From a virus, in IMG/VR virus record IMGVR_UViG_3300031787_000011: a DNA stretch of 64,000 nucleotides; one strand, written 5' to 3'. Of this stretch, positions 1,285 through 13,615 are shown piece after piece. The position numbers were made by a program, and so were the translations under genes. Every line of letters begins with the position of its first letter. Positions within the stretch are counted from its first letter, which is position 1. The notes beneath the pieces were generated by a model. It saw nothing but the letters and a program-made list of their open reading frames with translations, did no database searches and was not told the DNA's origin.

Positions 1285-1348
1285 ATCCCACTAGAAGTAA
1301 GTCTGTTTCCAGAACGGGGCATGAAGCCCCTTGTCCTTCTAGCGAGAT
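1285..1348 (-). ncRNA. small three-way-junction RNA or terminator-like element
   Basis: CTAGAAG/CTTCTAG closing stem encloses GGGGC-TTCAT-GCCCC and TCTG-GAAA-CAGA hairpins; followed by a U8 tract. Confidence 0.5.
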
Positions 1349-1358
1349 AAAAATTAAA

Positions 1359-1440
1359 TGAGCGCAGCAGGAATCGAACCTGCTCCTCTGTTTCCGCTTT
1401 TTACAGCTTCGTGCCATTGCTACCAATACACCACACGCTC
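1359..1440 (-). ncRNA. tRNA-like RNA A (acceptor and T arm intact, no canonical anticodon arm)
   Basis: GAGCGTG/TGCGCTC acceptor, D-loop-like TATTGGTAGC, T arm GCAGG-TTCGATT-CCTGC; no 5-bp/7-nt anticodon arm. Confidence 0.65.
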
Positions 1441-1448
1441 AGAAAATC

Positions 1449-1566
1449 CGTGATAAGACTTTTATTTTCTATTTGTCAATAGTTTTATAAGCTTTATCAC
1501 GCTAGAGTCTCCTGATTTGTTTTCAGCGTTATGTCTACCGACACGCACTACAAATCTCCCTCTAGG
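1449..1566 (-). ncRNA. putative two-hairpin structured RNA
   Basis: CTAGAG/CTCTAG, GATTTGT/ACAAATC, GCGT..ACGC nested stems, then a CGTGATAAAG/CTTATCACG stem. Confidence 0.4.
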
Positions 1567-1595
1567 AAAATAAAATTAAAAAGAACAAAATTAAT

Positions 1596-1730
1596 TGATT
1601 GATAGTAGGATTCGAACCTACAGTCCCCACCCCTATTTAGGTTTATATGATGGTTATGCGCATACATCGCCATGAACCTATAAAACTTTGGCAGCCGATG
1701 CGCTCCTTTTCCAGTTAGGTAATACCAATC
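1596..1730 (-). ncRNA. tRNA-like RNA B with a long hairpin in place of the anticodon and variable region
   Basis: 8-bp acceptor GATTGGTA/TATCAATC, D arm CCT-AACTGGAAA-AGG, T arm GTAGG-TTCGAAT-CCTAC, internal TAGGTT...AACCTA hairpin. Confidence 0.65.
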
Positions 1731-1749
1731 AAAAAGAACTAAAAATTAT

Positions 1750-2043
1750 TGCCCATTTTTGTCGCAGTGTAAAGTGACTGGAACCATTATCACTTGGGCG
1801 CACTGTCTGGATTGCAATTGCAGATCAGGTCATTCAGTTATCTGGTATACCGAGTATTCCCAGTACCCCAGATTACGTCCCGGTTCACGACTGTCCTCAT
1901 TGCTGCAAAATCTAATGTGCAGTTTATACAGGATTTTCTGCACTAGCCTCTCTATTAGTCTTTGTTGGCTGTCCAAAGCGTCAAGCTGCGTCCTGTTGGC
2001 AAAGTTATGTTTCTGGATTTCACTATTTGTTCCATTTACTACG
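1750..2043 (-). ncRNA. ~295-nt structured ncRNA candidate, family unknown
   Basis: GC-richer, no credible ORF; helices CGTAGT/ACTGCG, TGGAAC/GTTCCA, GTGCAG/CTGCAC, CTAAT/ATTAG, ATCTGG/CCAGAT, GCCCA/TGGGC; lies inside the tRNA island. Confidence 0.55.
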
Positions 2044-2086
2044 TTTTAATTCGTCAATTAAAACACTTCAATGTCTATCAGGATCA

Positions 2087-2192
2087 ATACATTAACTAGC
2101 CCAACTATCGGTCAGATTCGAACTGACAAACCCGGCCTATTCGCCGGTACTTTACCCGCTTAAGTTACTGTCATTGTATTTATTAATGTATT
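2087..2192 (-). ncRNA. tRNA-like RNA C (D, anticodon-like and T arms; displaced acceptor stem)
   Basis: ACTT-AAGCGGGTA-AAGT, CCGGC-GAATAG-GCCGG (6-nt loop), GTCAG-TTCGAAT-CTGAC; flanks AATACATTAA/TTAATGTATT pair. Confidence 0.6.
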
Positions 2193-2218: not shown

Positions 2219-2772
2219 TCCAGCGAGGGGGACTTGAACCCCCACAGTGTTATTAGCACCTGCGGATTTTACTTACCACTATAGTTTTCACTACCAAAGT
2301 TCGATTGAACAAAGATTTTTAATACTTATTTGTTTTACATCGTTCGTATCCCCGATTTCTTTATTCCTTTGTTTGTGGTCTGGACTATGCCTTTACCATA
2401 ATCTAATGAGTATTTCAAGCCTGTTCGGCTATCTTAGATTTTCTAGGTAGGTGATTATAGTCTCTACACGTTTCTAATTATGAGGCTATAGAATTTATCG
2501 CAATGAAGCGGCTAGAAGGGTAACCTAGCTAGGGTGGCTGATCACGATTGCGTCAGTTGTTCCACCTTTTTTCTTCTATAATTTCTTTATCGTTTGCCTT
2601 AGACTTCGCTCGGCGTTGGGTAGAAATTATTTATTTGGACAGTGGGGTTTTCCACCGTTGCTCCAATTTTCAATAACTCATGCCGTTCACCGAATTTACA
2701 CCATACTCATACATAATTTCTCATGTATGGACCCTTAAGAGTCCGCTGCGTCTGCCATTTCGCCATCGCTGG
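2219..2772 (-). tRNA. trnL: tRNA-Leu(UAA), intron-containing (exons 2772-2740 and 2271-2219)
   Basis: Spliced form: CCAGCGA TG GCG AAATGGCAGA CGC A GCGGA CT^TAA AA TCCGC, long variable arm, GGGGG TTCAAGT CCCCC TCGCTGG A. Confidence 0.93.
2272..2739 (-). mobile_element. group I self-splicing intron, 468 nt, no ORF, inserted after U33 of tRNA-Leu
   Basis: P1 GGACU^C-UUAA-GGGUCC with U.G at the splice site; P AAATTCGGTGAA, Q AACGCCGAGCGAAG, R GTGTAGAGACTA, S AAGGCATAGTCC; terminal G (GGTAAG). Confidence 0.9.
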
Positions 2773-2807: not shown

Positions 2808-2883
2808 TGGTAGCCCATAAGAGAATCGAACTCTTGTTAATAGATTGAAAATCTACTGTCCTAAACCACTAGACGAATGGGCC
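2808..2883 (-). tRNA. tRNA-Glu(UUC)
   Basis: Cloverleaf; GTAGA-TT TTC AA-TCTAT; encoded CCA. Confidence 0.95.
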
Positions 2884-2887
2884 AAAA

Positions 2888-2964
2888 TGGTGGTCCGGGT
2901 GGGCTTCGAACCCACAACCTATCCCTTATAAAGAGATTGCTCTGCTCTATTGAGCTACCAGACC
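2888..2964 (-). tRNA. tRNA-Ile(UAU)
   Basis: ATCTC-TT TAT AA-GGGAT; encoded CCA. Confidence 0.92.
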
Positions 2965-2970
2965 AGCATT

Positions 2971-3046
2971 TGGTGGGCCTTACAGGATTTGAACCTATAA
3001 CCAAGGAATTATGAGTTCCCTGCTCTAACCGTTGAGCTAAAGGCCC
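2971..3046 (-). tRNA. tRNA with CAU anticodon, Ile2-like body (or elongator Met)
   Basis: GGGCCTTTAGCTCAACGGTTAGAGCA; GGGAA-CT CAT AA-TTCCT; CCA. Confidence 0.9.
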
Positions 3047-3070
3047 ACTAAATTTTAAAGAACAAAAAAA

Positions 3071-3270
3071 CCGTGTAGTTTTTTTCGAAAAACTACAAAA
3101 ACGGATATAACGAACCTATATCTAGTTAAGGTTTCTATAGCGAACCTGAAAAACTGTTGAGTTTTTAGTCTAAGGTAACGGACTCAACTAACCTAAAATA
3201 TTAAGCAGCGGGAAACGTATTTCCATCTTATATAATTAACACACGTTAGATATAAGAGATCTCACTGCTC
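3071..3270 (-). ncRNA. putative structured spacer RNA between tRNA-Lys and tRNA-CAU
   Basis: GAGCAGTG/CGCTGCTT enclosing TCTTATAT/ATATAAGA and GGAAA/TTTCC; also GTTGAGT/ACTCAAC, GATATA/TATATC and GTAGTTTTT/AAAAACTAC hairpins. Confidence 0.4.
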
Positions 3271-3292
3271 AAAATTTTAAAAGAACGAAAAT

Positions 3293-3367
3293 TGGTGCGA
3301 CTGCCGAGATTTGAACTCGGAACCAACGGCTTAAAAGGCCGCTGCTCTACCGTTGAGCTACAATCGC
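3293..3367 (-). tRNA. tRNA-Lys(UUU)
   Basis: GCGGC-CT TTT AA-GCCGT; CCA. Confidence 0.95.
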
Positions 3368-3370
3368 ATT

Positions 3371-3446
3371 TGGGAGCAGGTGCCAGATTCGAACTAGCGA
3401 TCTTCACGTTATGAGCGTGACGAGATGACCTCTTCTCCAACCTGCC
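3371..3446 (-). tRNA. tRNA-Met(CAU), initiator-like body with atypical anticodon stem
   Basis: TGGAGAAG..TCTCG D arm; TCACG-CT CAT AA-CGTGA; CCA. Confidence 0.88.
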
Positions 3447-3464
3447 GTCCTAACTTACGCTCTC

Positions 3465-3492
3465 AGTATGACCGAAGTTCCTGAGAAGTCAA
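3465..3492 (-). promoter_or_regulatory. sigma70-like promoter for the tRNA/ncRNA array
   Basis: TTGACT-N16-CATACT upstream of tRNA-Met. Confidence 0.7.
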
Positions 3493-3517
3493 GGAAAGTT
3501 GAAAAAATTTTTAGAAG

Positions 3518-3592
3518 TGGAGCCAAAGACAGGACTTGAACCTGCAACCTTTACTTTACAAAAGTATTGCTCTGCCATTGAGCTACTCTGGC
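3518..3592 (-). tRNA. tRNA-Thr(UGU)
   Basis: ATACT-TT TGT AA-AGTAA; CCA. Confidence 0.93.
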
Positions 3593-3599
3593 TTTAAAA

Positions 3600-4022
3600 T
3601 TAATGCTTAATCATTCTGCCGCCAACAATATTACTCTTTTTAAAAGATTTAAAATGATTGCTGTCATCAAGATCATGTCCTTTGATATAATACTTATCCT
3701 CTTCTAGGATGTCTACTTTGCGCCAATCTGTCTTGCCGTCATCTTTCTTATACACAAATTCAACAACATTTGGAACTCTTGTTGAGATCTGAGTCGGCTC
3801 AACGTAGCCTTGCCCCTCATTGACAATTGAAATAACTTTTTTGCCAATTACAGAATGAGCAAAAACAATAAAATCAACCATAGCTTTAGTTGGATCAACC
3901 GACAAAGATTTAAAATTCCCTAAAAGCTTATTTAAAAAAGCCTTATTTGGAACTTCTATTTCCAAAATTGGAGAATCATAATACTGCTCTTCATTGGTGA
4001 TGAATTGTATGTATGCTTTCAT
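3600..4022 (-). CDS. protein with C-terminal WYL-like domain
   Basis: VVEFVYKKDDGKTDWRKV...YIKGHDLDDSNHFKSFKKSNI resembles the WYL pattern F.Y...G....R.V...yl.g.d......r.F..drI. Confidence 0.65.
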   Translation of the reverse strand: MKAYIQFITNEEQYYDSPILEIEVPNKAFLNKLLGNFKSLSVDPTKAMVDFIVFAHSVIGKKVISIVNEGQGYVEPTQISTRVPNVVEFVYKKDDGKTDWRKVDILEEDKYYIKGHDLDDSNHFKSFKKSNIVGGRMIKH

Positions 4023-4023
4023 G

Positions 4024-4161
4024 TTATTTTTCTGATAAAAACTTCTCTACAATTAAAAATAAAACAAAATTAACAGCCACGCCAACCAACATACCATAAA
4101 GTACAGACACAATGAGTCCAATTACAATAGTTGATCCTACGGCTATATTATAAATTTTCAT
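4024..4161 (-). CDS. small membrane protein, 45 aa
   Basis: MKIYNIAVGSTIVIGLIVSVLYGMLVGVAVNFVLFLIVEKFLSEK; start placed downstream of tRNA-Gln. Confidence 0.6.
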   Translation of the reverse strand: MKIYNIAVGSTIVIGLIVSVLYGMLVGVAVNFVLFLIVEKFLSEK

Positions 4162-4166
4162 AAAAA

Positions 4167-4240
4167 TGGCAGGGGATGAGGGAATCGAACCCCCACAAAG
4201 AGCTTCAAAGACTCCTGCACTACCATTATGCAAATCCCCA
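4167..4240 (-). tRNA. tRNA-Gln(UUG)
   Basis: GGAGT-CT TTG AA-GCTCT; U1-U72 mismatch; CCA. Confidence 0.93.
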
Positions 4241-4242
4241 AT

Positions 4243-4316
4243 TGGAGCGAGTAGGGGGAATCGAACCCCCATAGCAAGTTTGGAAAACTCGAACTTTACC
4301 ATTAAGCTATACTCGC
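4243..4316 (-). tRNA. tRNA-Gly(UCC)
   Basis: CGAGT-TT TCC AA-ACTTG; CCA. Confidence 0.95.
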
Positions 4317-4322
4317 AAAAAC

Positions 4323-4643
4323 TTACTTCTTCTTTTTCTTTTTCTCTTCTTCTCTTATCTTATTATCTTCTATCATTTTGTCCAATCTTTTATAAGCATT
4401 TTCTTTGGTGGTGCAAGTATATCCATCGCTGCCCCAAGCGTTGGAACTTGGATAATATTCACTAGCAGGATACATTTGTCCGCCAATAGCATAACCGTTA
4501 TGAGATTGTATTTTTACTACCTCATAATGTTTTCTTTCTGGAGAATCATTAAAGAATCTCTCGTAAATAGCAAAATCTCCTTCTCGGTGAATTTGCTTGT
4601 GAGAAAAGTTCTTGCTAGTAAAAGCCTTTTCTATTTTTTTCAT
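4323..4643 (-). CDS. hypothetical protein
   Basis: 106-aa ORF coupled by ATGA to the upstream gene. Confidence 0.75.
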   Translation of the reverse strand: MKKIEKAFTSKNFSHKQIHREGDFAIYERFFNDSPERKHYEVVKIQSHNGYAIGGQMYPASEYYPSSNAWGSDGYTCTTKENAYKRLDKMIEDNKIREEEKKKKKK

Positions 4644-11964: not shown

Positions 11965-12918
11965 ATGAAAAGGTTTCTGATTTTATTAATAGCGCTTTTA
12001 GCGTCTGGGTGTTTTTCTACAGTGCCTCCTGCTAGGCCTTCTACAGCTAACCAGCAGATAATAGATAACCAAGAAAAAAAGCTAGATAAAACTTTAGATC
12101 AAATAGAAAAAAACGAAAAGGGTAAAAAAATCCAAACATCTACTTTGGCTCAAGGTATTCAATACTCCTTGACTCAAGTAACTAATCCACCAGTCCAAGT
12201 AGAGACAGCAAAATCTTTAAACGAAAGAGTAGTTTCAATTGTCGGATCACCTCATATCGACGAAATCAAAAGAATAAAAGCTACTGTTGATTTATTAAAT
12301 TCAGCAATAGAAGAAGAAAGAAAAAAAGGCCTAGAACTTTTGGCCCAGCGCGACGAAATAATCAGCAAATTGCAAAAGGAAAAAGTTGAGTTAAATGAAA
12401 AGTACGACGATCAACTTTGGCAAATGTCAGATAAAGCTAAAAAAGTAGCCGAAGAAGCTGACGCCGCAAAAGCTACTCTAAATTCTATGAGTGGAATGTT
12501 TGGTTTAAATGCTGTATTTTGGGGGTTGAAAAAGTTTTTCCTAAGCGCCTTAACTGCAATAATTATATTCTCTGTACTGTTCTTAATTCTTCGTTTGCTT
12601 GCGACAATCAATCCTATTGCAGCGGCTGCGTTTTCTATTTTTGACATGCTTGGTTCTTTGATTATTTCTTTATTCAAAGGCCTTACTCCGAAGGCATTCG
12701 AAATGAGTAATCTTATAAGCAAAGAAAAATTTGATGAATACAAAACGCCATTAATTAAAATTATAGATGTAATTCAAGATTTAAAAGTGGAACAAGAAAA
12801 ACATCCTGATAAGACATTCAGTATGCAAAATATTTTAGACCAGTTAGATCGAGATATGGATAAAACTGAAAAAGATTTAGTGCAACAAATTTTAAAGGAA
12901 TTGAGATGGAAAAAATAA
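11965..12918 (+). CDS. lipoprotein with coiled coil and C-terminal TM segments (spanin-like candidate)
   Basis: Lipobox LASGC, long coiled coil, two hydrophobic helices; GTGTAA 9 nt upstream. Confidence 0.6.
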   Translation: MKRFLILLIALLASGCFSTVPPARPSTANQQIIDNQEKKLDKTLDQIEKNEKGKKIQTSTLAQGIQYSLTQVTNPPVQVETAKSLNERVVSIVGSPHIDEIKRIKATVDLLNSAIEEERKKGLELLAQRDEIISKLQKEKVELNEKYDDQLWQMSDKAKKVAEEADAAKATLNSMSGMFGLNAVFWGLKKFFLSALTAIIIFSVLFLILRLLATINPIAAAAFSIFDMLGSLIISLFKGLTPKAFEMSNLISKEKFDEYKTPLIKIIDVIQDLKVEQEKHPDKTFSMQNILDQLDRDMDKTEKDLVQQILKELRWKK

Positions 12919-13012
12919 ACCAATCAGAAAAAGAAAATAAATATTGTTGTTTCGCTTGGCTTTCTTTTCTTTTGTTTTTTCGTGTAATATGAATATACAA
13001 ACCGCTTGATTT

Positions 13013-13615
13013 ATGGAAACTTTTGAGAAAATAATTGATGTTTTAGGTAAGATCAACTCTTCAATTGTTATTGTAGCAGCTTTCGGCGGCTATATGTTTT
13101 ATTTAATTAAGAAGTTGCAACCATTCACAACAATAATAACAGATATAGCGTCTTTAAAAGAAGAGATAGAATCAATTTCAAAAGAATTAAAGCCGAATGG
13201 CGGCAAAAGCATGAAAGACCAGCTTAATGATTTACAAGCTTCAACAAAAACAATACTACATAGGCAAAGATGGATATTAGATAACAGAGAAGAGCCAATA
13301 TTTGAAACGGATGAAAAAGGAAATTTTACATGGGCGAATGATTCTTTAATTAGACTAACTGATAGATTATTTAAAGATTTAGAAAATAATAATTGGATAA
13401 ATGCCCTTTGCGAAAAAACTAGAGATGAAGTTAACGAAAGTTGGCAGCTAGCTATAGAAAATAAAAGAAATTTTGAACACGATATAGTAATTATAGATAG
13501 TGAAAATAGAGCTTTTAATGCAAAATGTCACGCAGTCCGTCAAGATGACGGAAAATACATAGGAAAATTAATATATATAAAAGAAATAGAAGAAAAAAGT
13601 AAAAAATGTAAGTGA
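13013..13615 (+). CDS. membrane protein with PAS domain
   Basis: N-terminal TM, coiled coil with PNGGKS, then IFETDEKGNFTWAND...NWINAL PAS pattern. Confidence 0.75.
   Translation: METFEKIIDVLGKINSSIVIVAAFGGYMFYLIKKLQPFTTIITDIASLKEEIESISKELKPNGGKSMKDQLNDLQASTKTILHRQRWILDNREEPIFETDEKGNFTWANDSLIRLTDRLFKDLENNNWINALCEKTRDEVNESWQLAIENKRNFEHDIVIIDSENRAFNAKCHAVRQDDGKYIGKLIYIKEIEEKSKKCK

Follow-up and report, generated by a model that had tools for sequence, protein, structure and literature searches.

Structured RNA modules, some of them tRNA-shaped and non-decoding, at the distal end of a tRNA operon in an uncultured freshwater phage

The DNA studied here, called the window throughout, is a stretch of 64,000 nucleotides (nt) from IMG/VR virus record IMGVR_UViG_3300031787_000011. 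It belongs to an uncultured freshwater phage whose relatives are about 174 kb long. Our subject is positions 1285-2192, at one end of an array of tRNA genes; all coordinates without a locus name are window positions. ARAGORN at default settings calls eight canonical tRNAs at 2808-4316, every one on the minus strand, and because the array runs on that strand the stretch lies downstream of the canonical tRNAs. Here, we show that this distal end of the operon holds a row of discrete, conserved and folded modules that behave as cassettes, and that the tRNA-shaped ones among them lack decoding features. In the direction of the array the order is tRNA-Leu, A, Bx-B, C, D, E and F, all of these units being on the minus strand. 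The initial annotation had described six folded units; their discreteness stands, and the count becomes seven modules between 2192 and 1276. They are very probably real, selected RNA modules that do not decode.

The initial annotation had also seen no credible open reading frame (ORF) in these 900 nt, and we agree. ORFs within 1285-2192 reach at most 96 amino acids (aa) and match no PHROG or Pfam family, and homologues of the stretch are separated by non-triplet indels of 1-2 nt, which speaks against coding. On these two grounds we ruled out that the stretch codes for protein. Its G+C content is 0.39-0.47, against about 0.32 in the flanking YopX-like genes. By DNA, no isolated phage is close: a blastn search with the window matched phage records at tRNAs only, and the DNA polymerase shares no more than 32% identity with known phage proteins. 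We gathered related IMG/VR contigs via a flanking protein and exact motifs, and a pattern from the core of unit B gathered at least 118 freshwater metagenome contigs. Related loci are given L-numbers, G001 and G002 are complete relatives, and L383 is the corresponding region of phage T4. The metagenome contig L304 is identical to the window in this stretch. An exact 17-mer of unit A gave 35 chance matches and no homologue in IMG/VR; the homologues of A come from metagenome loci only. Two B-bearing, phage-like tRNA-array contigs of about 34% G+C sit in a metagenome-assembled genome of Flavobacterium sp. (L384) and in a Gammaproteobacteria assembly (L386), a weak and conflicting hint at the host.

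Three units, A, C and E, are shaped like tRNAs. That each keeps a T arm and a GG-containing D loop and is remodelled in its own way had been proposed from the window, and it is true of all three, the D arm of E being ambiguous. Their T arms have 5-base-pair (bp) stems: GUCAG-UUCGAAU-CUGAC in A, GUAGG-UUCGAAU-CCUAC in C and GCAGG-UUCGAUU-CCUGC in E. The acceptor has 8 bp in C, 7 bp in E, and 4 of 7 possible pairs in A. All three are missing the canonical anticodon arm, i.e. a 5-bp stem and a 7-nt loop with U33 and a stable anticodon. Nor do they encode CCA, as do 215 of the 254 canonical tRNAs of related arrays; the sequence that follows is GGG or GAG after A, AAU or AAA after C, and UUU or UUA after E. 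ARAGORN misses all three at default settings. In a search of 1250-2800 against Rfam 15 (E ≤ 10), E alone was returned as a tRNA, together with a weak group I match on an intron described below. With the tRNA model RF00005, whose family threshold is 29 bits, E scores 30.1 bits by skipping the anticodon arm, and the window copies of A and C give no match at E ≤ 10; the copy of A in L271 reaches 33.8 bits. Rfam matches to snoR130, IMES-5 and a tmRNA fragment were at chance level. Neither an ordinary nor a permuted tmRNA was found by ARAGORN at default settings, the only traces being a permuted call at low threshold and a 17-nt match to the T arm, and the G3.U70 feature of tmRNAs is replaced by G-C in E and U-A in C at position 3:70.

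Relatives tell the same story at these positions. Had the units been ordinary tRNA genes degraded in this one phage, related phages might have carried the intact versions. Instead, the cassettes are absent there or occur in the same non-canonical forms, with no ordinary tRNA orthologue in any relative. Compared with the 254 distinct tRNAs of related arrays, A, C and E match over the T arm only and no canonical orthologue emerges. We could thus rule out that the units are offshoots of neighbouring tRNAs, since the shared stretch is no longer than the T arm.

Unit C (1597-1730) is a tRNA-shaped RNA of 134 nt with its T arm at 1621-1605. Its acceptor of 8 bp includes a G-1:C73 pair, its D stem has 3 bp and carries the GG loop, and its variable arm is a long hairpin. 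In the position of the anticodon arm there is an extended arm of about 46 nt, reached via a 6-bp stem. We found 12 distinct variants of two types, a and b, distinguished by the middle of the extended arm alone; L113 and L229 carry the two in tandem. Across the 12 variants the proposed pairs form in 97.6% of cells, against 34-44% in controls with slid partners, and eight pairs have changed on both sides, against 0-1 in the slid controls. One of these compensatory changes lies in a proposed contact between two loops: those of the extended and variable arms are complementary (AGGUU/AACCU), both sides are changed in L296 (AGAUU/AAUCU), and L229a gives U.G. This suggests, from sequence covariation, an intramolecular kissing contact that would bury the region where an anticodon is expected. 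Because eight pairs show compensatory changes, C is under selection rather than decaying. Fold z-scores computed from the minimum free energy (MFE) are −2.75 for A, −1.2 for C, −4.4 for D, −2.4 for E and −5.7 for F; that of C being just −1.2, the case for C rests on covariation instead. A covariance model (CM) built from C, R1, separates the family cleanly: members score above 134 bits, and the next matches are ordinary tRNAs, mostly tRNA-Arg(UCU), at 31 bits or less.

Unit E (1359-1440) is an 82-nt RNA with a 7-bp acceptor, a T arm at 1383-1367 and a D-loop-like segment AUUGGUA. Its centre is nearly invariant. Where the anticodon arm is expected it has a hairpin, CUGU-11 nt-ACAG, and no anticodon stem, so that 29 nt stand where the tRNA model expects 18. 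The D arm is ambiguous in that the MFE fold takes the GG into an 8-bp hairpin. Among four variants every substitution lies in a loop or keeps a pair: the T stem GCAGG/CCUGC becomes AUAGG/CCUAU, and in the acceptor a G.U becomes G-C and a U.G becomes U-A.

Unit A (2086-2192) consists of a tRNA-like core (2174-2103) on an 11-bp outer helix made by an inverted repeat (2192-2182 with 2096-2086), which the MFE fold forms. The core has a D arm (ACUU-9 nt with GG-AAGU), a stem CCGGC/GCCGG that closes a 6-nt loop GAAUAG, and a T arm at 2127-2111. Six variants are available. Their D and T arms and flanks are nearly invariant, and variation is concentrated in the 6-nt loop; one pair of the stem is seen as G-C, G.U and A-U. 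All six loop positions vary, yet the loops group into two alleles, (G/A)AAUAG and UC(C/G)(G/A)A(U/C), that differ at five of the six positions. Held against the tRNA model, the L271 copy has three mismatches in the acceptor, and its loop is one nt short. In the variant L362 one pair of the T stem and the loop-closing pair are broken. The inverted repeat, of 11-12 bp (AAAUAYAUUAAU...AUUAAUGUAUU), brackets two unrelated tRNA-like cargos: A itself, and an anticodon-less one in L342 (1511-1616) and L346 (1197-1303). The repeat might form a stem in the RNA, or else mark the termini of a small mobile cassette.

The remaining modules are not tRNA-like. Unit B (1742-1910) is a structured RNA of about 170 nt, and nhmmer finds it at 143 or more loci, all phage or metagenome contigs. 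Its 5' domain is closed by an invariant GCAG/CUGC helix and contains several covarying helices and invariant internal-loop bases. Its 3' domain forms an H-type pseudoknot from CAGUG/CACUG and GCCCA/UGGGY, and also contains an inserted hairpin and a linker rich in A. Over 75 distinct sequences 99.1% of cells pair, against 28-36% with slid partners, and 13 pairs have changed on both sides, against 1-6 in slid controls. The fold of B is thus strongly backed by covariation. The pseudoknot stems are invariant or nearly so, and the argument for them is therefore one of pairing potential only. B has no Rfam match at E ≤ 10. Two motif assignments were tried and rejected: reading its internal loop as a kink-turn requires a register that clashes with the covarying pairs 21:97 and 22:96, and GAGGACAGUC, a candidate for CR-I of RNase P, is unconserved, the L081 group carrying GACGGGAGUC in its place. 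In 39 of the 58 contexts where B adjoins tRNA-Leu it starts 1-3 nt past the CCA of that tRNA; in the window A and Bx intervene. The next neighbour of B is F in 34 contexts and tRNA-Arg in 31. Unit Bx (1911-2085) is a hairpin-rich 5' extension of B that occurs in some relatives only. Homologues were found in L271, L299, L111, L175 and L150, and the window segment 2011-1743 is 91.5% identical in L001. Bx may be a diverged duplicate of the 5' domain of B. About 150-200 nt ahead of the full unit, some loci carry a second, partial copy of B that covers its first 50 nt (L081 2221-2269, L119 734-782 and L150 792-841).

Unit F (1286-1347) is a 62-nt three-way junction with an outer stem of 12-13 bp and the hairpins GGGGC-UUCAU-GCCCC and UCUG-GAAA-CAGA. 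We found it at 58 or so loci at least, with a mean column identity of 92% over 35 variants and no match to any Rfam family. Substitutions in its stems mostly keep pairing, with a few single mismatches. In the window F is followed by a U-run (1283-1276) and then, at 1275, by the ATG of the next ORF. In many relatives a tRNA-Arg(UCU) follows within 4-5 nt in place of the U-run, and F is for this reason more than a terminator. Unit D (1449-1565) folds into two long hairpins, at 1565-1502 and 1501-1449, and always lies 6 nt upstream of E. Its four variants are near-identical, with one compensatory change, from CUAGAG/CUCUAG to CUAGGG/CCCUAG, in L346. The same D-6 nt-E linkage is present in the window, L113, L346 and L285.

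Module maps of the related loci reveal a conserved operon backbone, Gly-Gln-Thr-Met-Lys-Met-Ile-Glu-Leu(UAA)-[B]-[F]-Arg(UCU)-Asn-Tyr, with many variable gaps between its elements. B and F belong to this backbone; A, C and the D-E pair are optional, slotted as cassettes between its elements. Each has its slot: A only between Leu and Bx or B, C after B, and D and E always together, 6 nt apart, before F. Among close relatives the cassettes are present or missing independently, as in L285 (B-D-E-F), L266 (B-C-F) and L001 (B-F), and L113 and L229 each have two paralogues of C. Other inserts were seen in these arrays. A conserved module G of about 140 nt, not tRNA-like, stands between tRNA-Leu and B in L002 (14309-14450), L001 and L003; it has long hairpins, e.g. 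GCGGUUUGGG...CCCAAGCCGC, covarying in L003. Gaps of 142-143 nt between Leu and B, counted to this module, occur in L276, L310, L363, L374 and L337. A further tRNA-like unit, with T arm GCUGG-UUCGAAU-CCAGC, 3' UCCA and a poorly pairing acceptor, lies between the two C copies in L113 (5180-5270, minus strand) and directly ahead of D in L346 (2050-2150, plus strand). A/U-rich spacers of the form AAUUUU(A/G)GUUCUUUU(U/A) are repeated at cassette borders in the window (1732-1745 and 1575-1595) and in relatives, and resemble boxA of the Gram-positive type. A simple count of the pattern RGTTCTTTW in the window was not above chance.

The tRNA-Leu(UAA) that precedes A (2219-2772, minus strand, CCA not encoded) is split by a group I intron: exon 1 at 2772-2740, a 468-nt intron at 2739-2272 and exon 2 at 2271-2219. 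With its intron option ARAGORN calls it at 2772-2218. The intron follows U33, pairs as P1 GGACU/GGUCC with a U.G at the splice site and ends in G; its match to the Rfam model Intron_gpI is weak (17.5 bits, 2372-2749). In relatives the same slot holds a tRNA-Leu(UAA) without interruption. Homologous introns (68-72% identity) lie beside or inside tRNA-Met(CAU) in L150, L328 and L347, and elsewhere in L215, and this distribution suggests movement of group I introns between tRNA genes of related phages. In L003 a 666-nt insertion (12426-13093) sits right after position 33 of tRNA-Lys(UUU), its flanks corresponding to window 3371-3335 and 3334-3211; it is probably another group I intron. In L346, positions 23-230 score 50.2 bits, at the Rfam group I threshold. 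The array of the window also includes two minus-strand ORFs of 140 and 106 aa (3600-4022 and 4323-4643) that match no Pfam or PHROG family.

How common such units are can be judged from strict T-arm motifs, which are more frequent on the array strand than chance would allow. In 362 kb of non-redundant arrays 443 lie inside ARAGORN tRNAs, 67 outside them on the array strand, and none on the opposite strand. Of those 67, 22 are recovered as intron-mode calls, mostly with introns of 150-500 nt (Leu, Met and others) and in a few cases as forced calls of 33-46 nt, as happens on C. The other 45 include A, C, E, more tRNA-like units, odd tRNAs, and a few ordinary tRNAs that are cut at locus ends or missed by ARAGORN. 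Among the odd ones are apparent tRNA-Arg(UCU) genes, missed by ARAGORN, in the Arg slot after F in L278 (about 150-230), L281 (about 3040-3120), L305, L349 and L379; their acceptor is perfect and they have a CU-UCU-AA loop and CCA, but the D arm is much reduced and the variable region long. In these arrays, then, roughly every eighth gene with a T arm escapes standard tRNA finders, intron-split tRNAs and mimics taken together, which bears on how phage tRNA repertoires are read.

How might such a row work? We propose that it is a cassette row of non-decoding stable RNAs in which the tRNA-like parts serve as processing handles, and we give this whole reading, in which co-transcription, processing by RNase P, stability and any function are what we infer, a probability of about one half. 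The entire row would be transcribed together with the tRNAs, and the host machinery for tRNA maturation would release separate, stable small RNAs from the transcript. RNase P would cut at the 5' ends of the tRNA-like parts, and enzymes of the RNase E or Z type in the A/U-rich spacers. If the machinery cuts the row in this manner, then the tRNA-like parts, which alternate with non-tRNA modules in the window, would act as built-in handles for processing and stability. Further roles might be carried by the elaborated arms of C, by the centre of E, and by B and F themselves. The stack of acceptor and T stem measures 8+5 bp in C and 7+5 bp in E. A stack of such a size is the geometry measured by RNase P.

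Several observations weigh against this proposal. A simple handle leaves the elaborate arm and the kissing contact of C unexplained, and likewise the near-invariant centre of E. The 11-bp outer helix enclosing the core of A would hinder RNase P. The acceptor of A pairs in just 62% of cells, with two positions that never pair, and covariation is not significant in A, nor in E, where four variants are too small a number. On A and E the evidence is compatible with selection but thin. B and F are not always beside a tRNA or a tRNA-like unit: in L001 just 3 nt separate the two, with the next tRNA 9 kb off. The alternation of tRNA-like and other modules in the window is a single instance. Finally, scans for sigma-70 promoters and for simple terminators gave results at the level of shuffled sequence.

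Could the tRNA-shaped units simply be tRNA genes, either broken or working in unusual ways? Decaying pseudogenes, relics of no matter to the phage, would fit the acceptor of A and the broken pairs in L362; A is near enough to a tRNA to score above the RF00005 threshold in L271, and the covariation of A and E, as said, is not significant. In A part of the acceptor never pairs and the stems are broken in one variant, so that it may be partly decayed. For C plain decay is unlikely, given eight compensatory pairs and 97.6% pairing. The claim of selection rather than decay made in the initial annotation thus holds for C and is weaker for A and E, with six and four variants. Still, decay does not predict that the variation of A gathers in its 6-nt loop instead of being evenly scattered, that the substitutions of E all fall in loops or keep pairs, or that no relative retains a canonical orthologue, and as an account of the row we hold it very improbable. 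Even less credible to us, indeed barely so, is that the units are unusual working tRNAs, with non-group-I inserts removed by some other activity or with decoding by odd loops. The same arrays do contain odd tRNAs that ARAGORN misses, such as the tRNA-Arg(UCU) with reduced D arm, intact CU-UCU-AA loop and CCA, and relaxed settings force C into a tRNA-Gly(GCC) with a 38-nt intron. But the anticodon loop of C forced in this way differs between types a and b (CUGCCAA and GUAGCCA), and the 'anticodon' of A, in a loop of 6 nt, would switch amino-acid identity between near-identical bodies. E lacks an anticodon stem, the three units do not encode CCA, and neither an RNA ligase nor RtcB nor a CCA-adding enzyme was found in the complete relatives G001 and G002.

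Other explanations accept the units as functional or as mobile. The tRNA-shaped RNAs might be decoys or sponges that soak up a host factor reading the tRNA body or loop, e.g. a defence nuclease directed at tRNAs, a defence that senses them or an enzyme of tRNA maturation; phage or host tRNAs would thereby be protected, and a swappable arm would tune specificity. Phage tRNAs have been proposed to counter anticodon nucleases (PMC10264068), which counts in favour of decoys. It is suggestive that A and C keep a constant scaffold while the distal anticodon-arm region comes in discrete alleles (two loops in A; types a and b in C, together in one genome), and E keeps an invariant CUGUAA, the letters of the anticodon loop of tRNA-Tyr. 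To our knowledge, however, characterised anticodon nucleases use a 7-nt anticodon loop on a 5-bp stem, which none of A, C and E has. The loop of A is hypervariable and swaps between two unrelated alleles, one of them without U33; that of C appears to be paired within the molecule; and the cassettes have no linked protein of defence or counter-defence. On balance decoys seem unlikely. One might speculate further that A, C and E represent a new class, phage 'tRNA-scaffold' RNAs, whose constant body would provide processing, stability and access to partners and whose swappable arm (the loop alleles of A, the types of C) would set specificity for host targets, such as tRNA-directed defence nucleases or sensors, B and F being further parts of one RNA-only operon for counter-defence or takeover; this we regard as quite unlikely. 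Alternatively, the cassettes might be mobile at the DNA level: small mobile or recombining elements aimed at the tRNA array, in the manner of homing introns, would carry the units as cargo, and RNA shape would be a secondary matter. The presence/absence polymorphism of the cassettes is what such elements would produce, and the slot of A holds two unrelated cargos within the same inverted repeat, mobile group I introns occupy different tRNAs of the same arrays, and the A/U-rich spacer motifs recur at module borders. Yet, the ORFs inside the cassettes are tiny and unconserved, no transposase or endonuclease was found among them, and the compensatory changes in C speak of selection on an RNA fold. 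Mobility would moreover explain the spread of the modules and not their function, and is in this sense compatible with the proposed row of stable RNAs; on its own we find it improbable.

Among known systems, GOLLD and ROOL, named as precedent in the initial annotation, share with the modules here that they are non-coding RNAs near tRNA genes in phages and prophages. The parallel does not go further: they have Rfam models of their own, which gave no match at E ≤ 10, and are several hundred nt long, compared with 60-170 nt for the modules. The theta ribozymes, of the hepatitis delta virus (HDV)-like kind, lie within 5 nt of phage tRNA ends, often those of tRNA-Leu or tRNA-Met (PMC10879173), and B resembles them in having nested or pseudoknotted helices a few nt past a tRNA 3' end. 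It differs in its size of about 170 nt with a large 5' domain and in that the tRNAs here mostly encode CCA, unlike those associated with theta ribozymes. We rejected B as such a ribozyme: its 5' end opens a nested multi-helix domain and not P1 of a double pseudoknot, the linker in the place of J4/2 reads NGNNAANAA, without the conserved C, and Rfam gives no match of HDV type. The Y RNAs (YrlA and YrlB) that partner Ro60/Rsr carry a tRNA look-alike domain on a stem, often near tRNA arrays, and recall the core of A on its outer helix; they differ in that C and E end at the acceptor and not at the opposite pole. A Ro60/Y RNA module was also rejected. TROVE/Ro60 (PF05731), searched with working positive controls, is absent from G001 (itself without unit A) and G002, RtcB was not found there, Rfam returned no Y RNA, and nothing RNA-related, TROVE included, was seen among the larger ORFs scanned in the 64 kb that sample the phage of the window.

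A further parallel is offered by tRNA punctuation and tRNA-like processing signals, such as those of mitochondria, the t-elements of plant mitochondria (PMC1920247) and MALAT1-mascRNA, where, as here, non-decoding tRNA shapes stand between the RNAs of one transcript. Cuts by RNase P and RNase Z could define the ends of the neighbours in the same way, although in our case such processing is only predicted. Those systems serve mRNAs or long non-coding RNAs in organelles and nuclei, whereas in the phage tRNA operon they would serve neighbours that are small and structured. For a bare processing signal, moreover, C and E have more elaboration than is required.

By our comparison the closest precedent, nearer than GOLLD and ROOL, is rnaC and rnaD of phage T4 (species 1 and species 2), which follow the last tRNA of the T4 operon on the same strand, as the modules do here. 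T4 rnaC joins a non-tRNA 5' part to a tRNA-like 3' part; the latter has a T arm CCGGG-UUCGAAU-CCCGG, an 8-bp acceptor (ACGGAACG/CGUUUCGU) and a loop that contains GG. The annotation places the 3' end of rnaC at the discriminator, and in Rfam it gives a weak match of tRNA-Sec type (17.5 bits). Unit C shares its stack of 8+5 bp, and the D-E pair its order of hairpins followed by a tRNA-like part. The likeness does not extend to homology in sequence or model, and we rejected C as a homologue of rnaC: on L383 the model R1 matched nothing except a T4 tRNA at 19.7 bits. The layout of T4 nevertheless recurs here, at the distal end of the operon and on the same strand, with acceptor and T arm joined to non-tRNA parts, and it is on this precedent that we read the locus as non-decoding stable RNAs co-transcribed with tRNAs. 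The T4 species were reportedly demonstrated biochemically as small stable RNAs, and the units here are known from sequence alone. Unlike T4, the window has three tRNA-like units as well as B and F, and they behave as cassettes. B and F are two new, well-supported RNA families with many natural variants, and C is a tRNA-like family with a testable tertiary contact; all three lend themselves to structure probing, RNase P assays and screens for ribozymes or ligands. For some fifty years the RNAs of species 1 and 2, at the end of the T4 tRNA operon, have gone without an explanation. Their arrangement is no oddity of T4, since a group of uncultured freshwater phages keeps non-decoding tRNA-shaped and other structured RNAs at the same end of the operon, shuffled as cassettes under selection on their folds.

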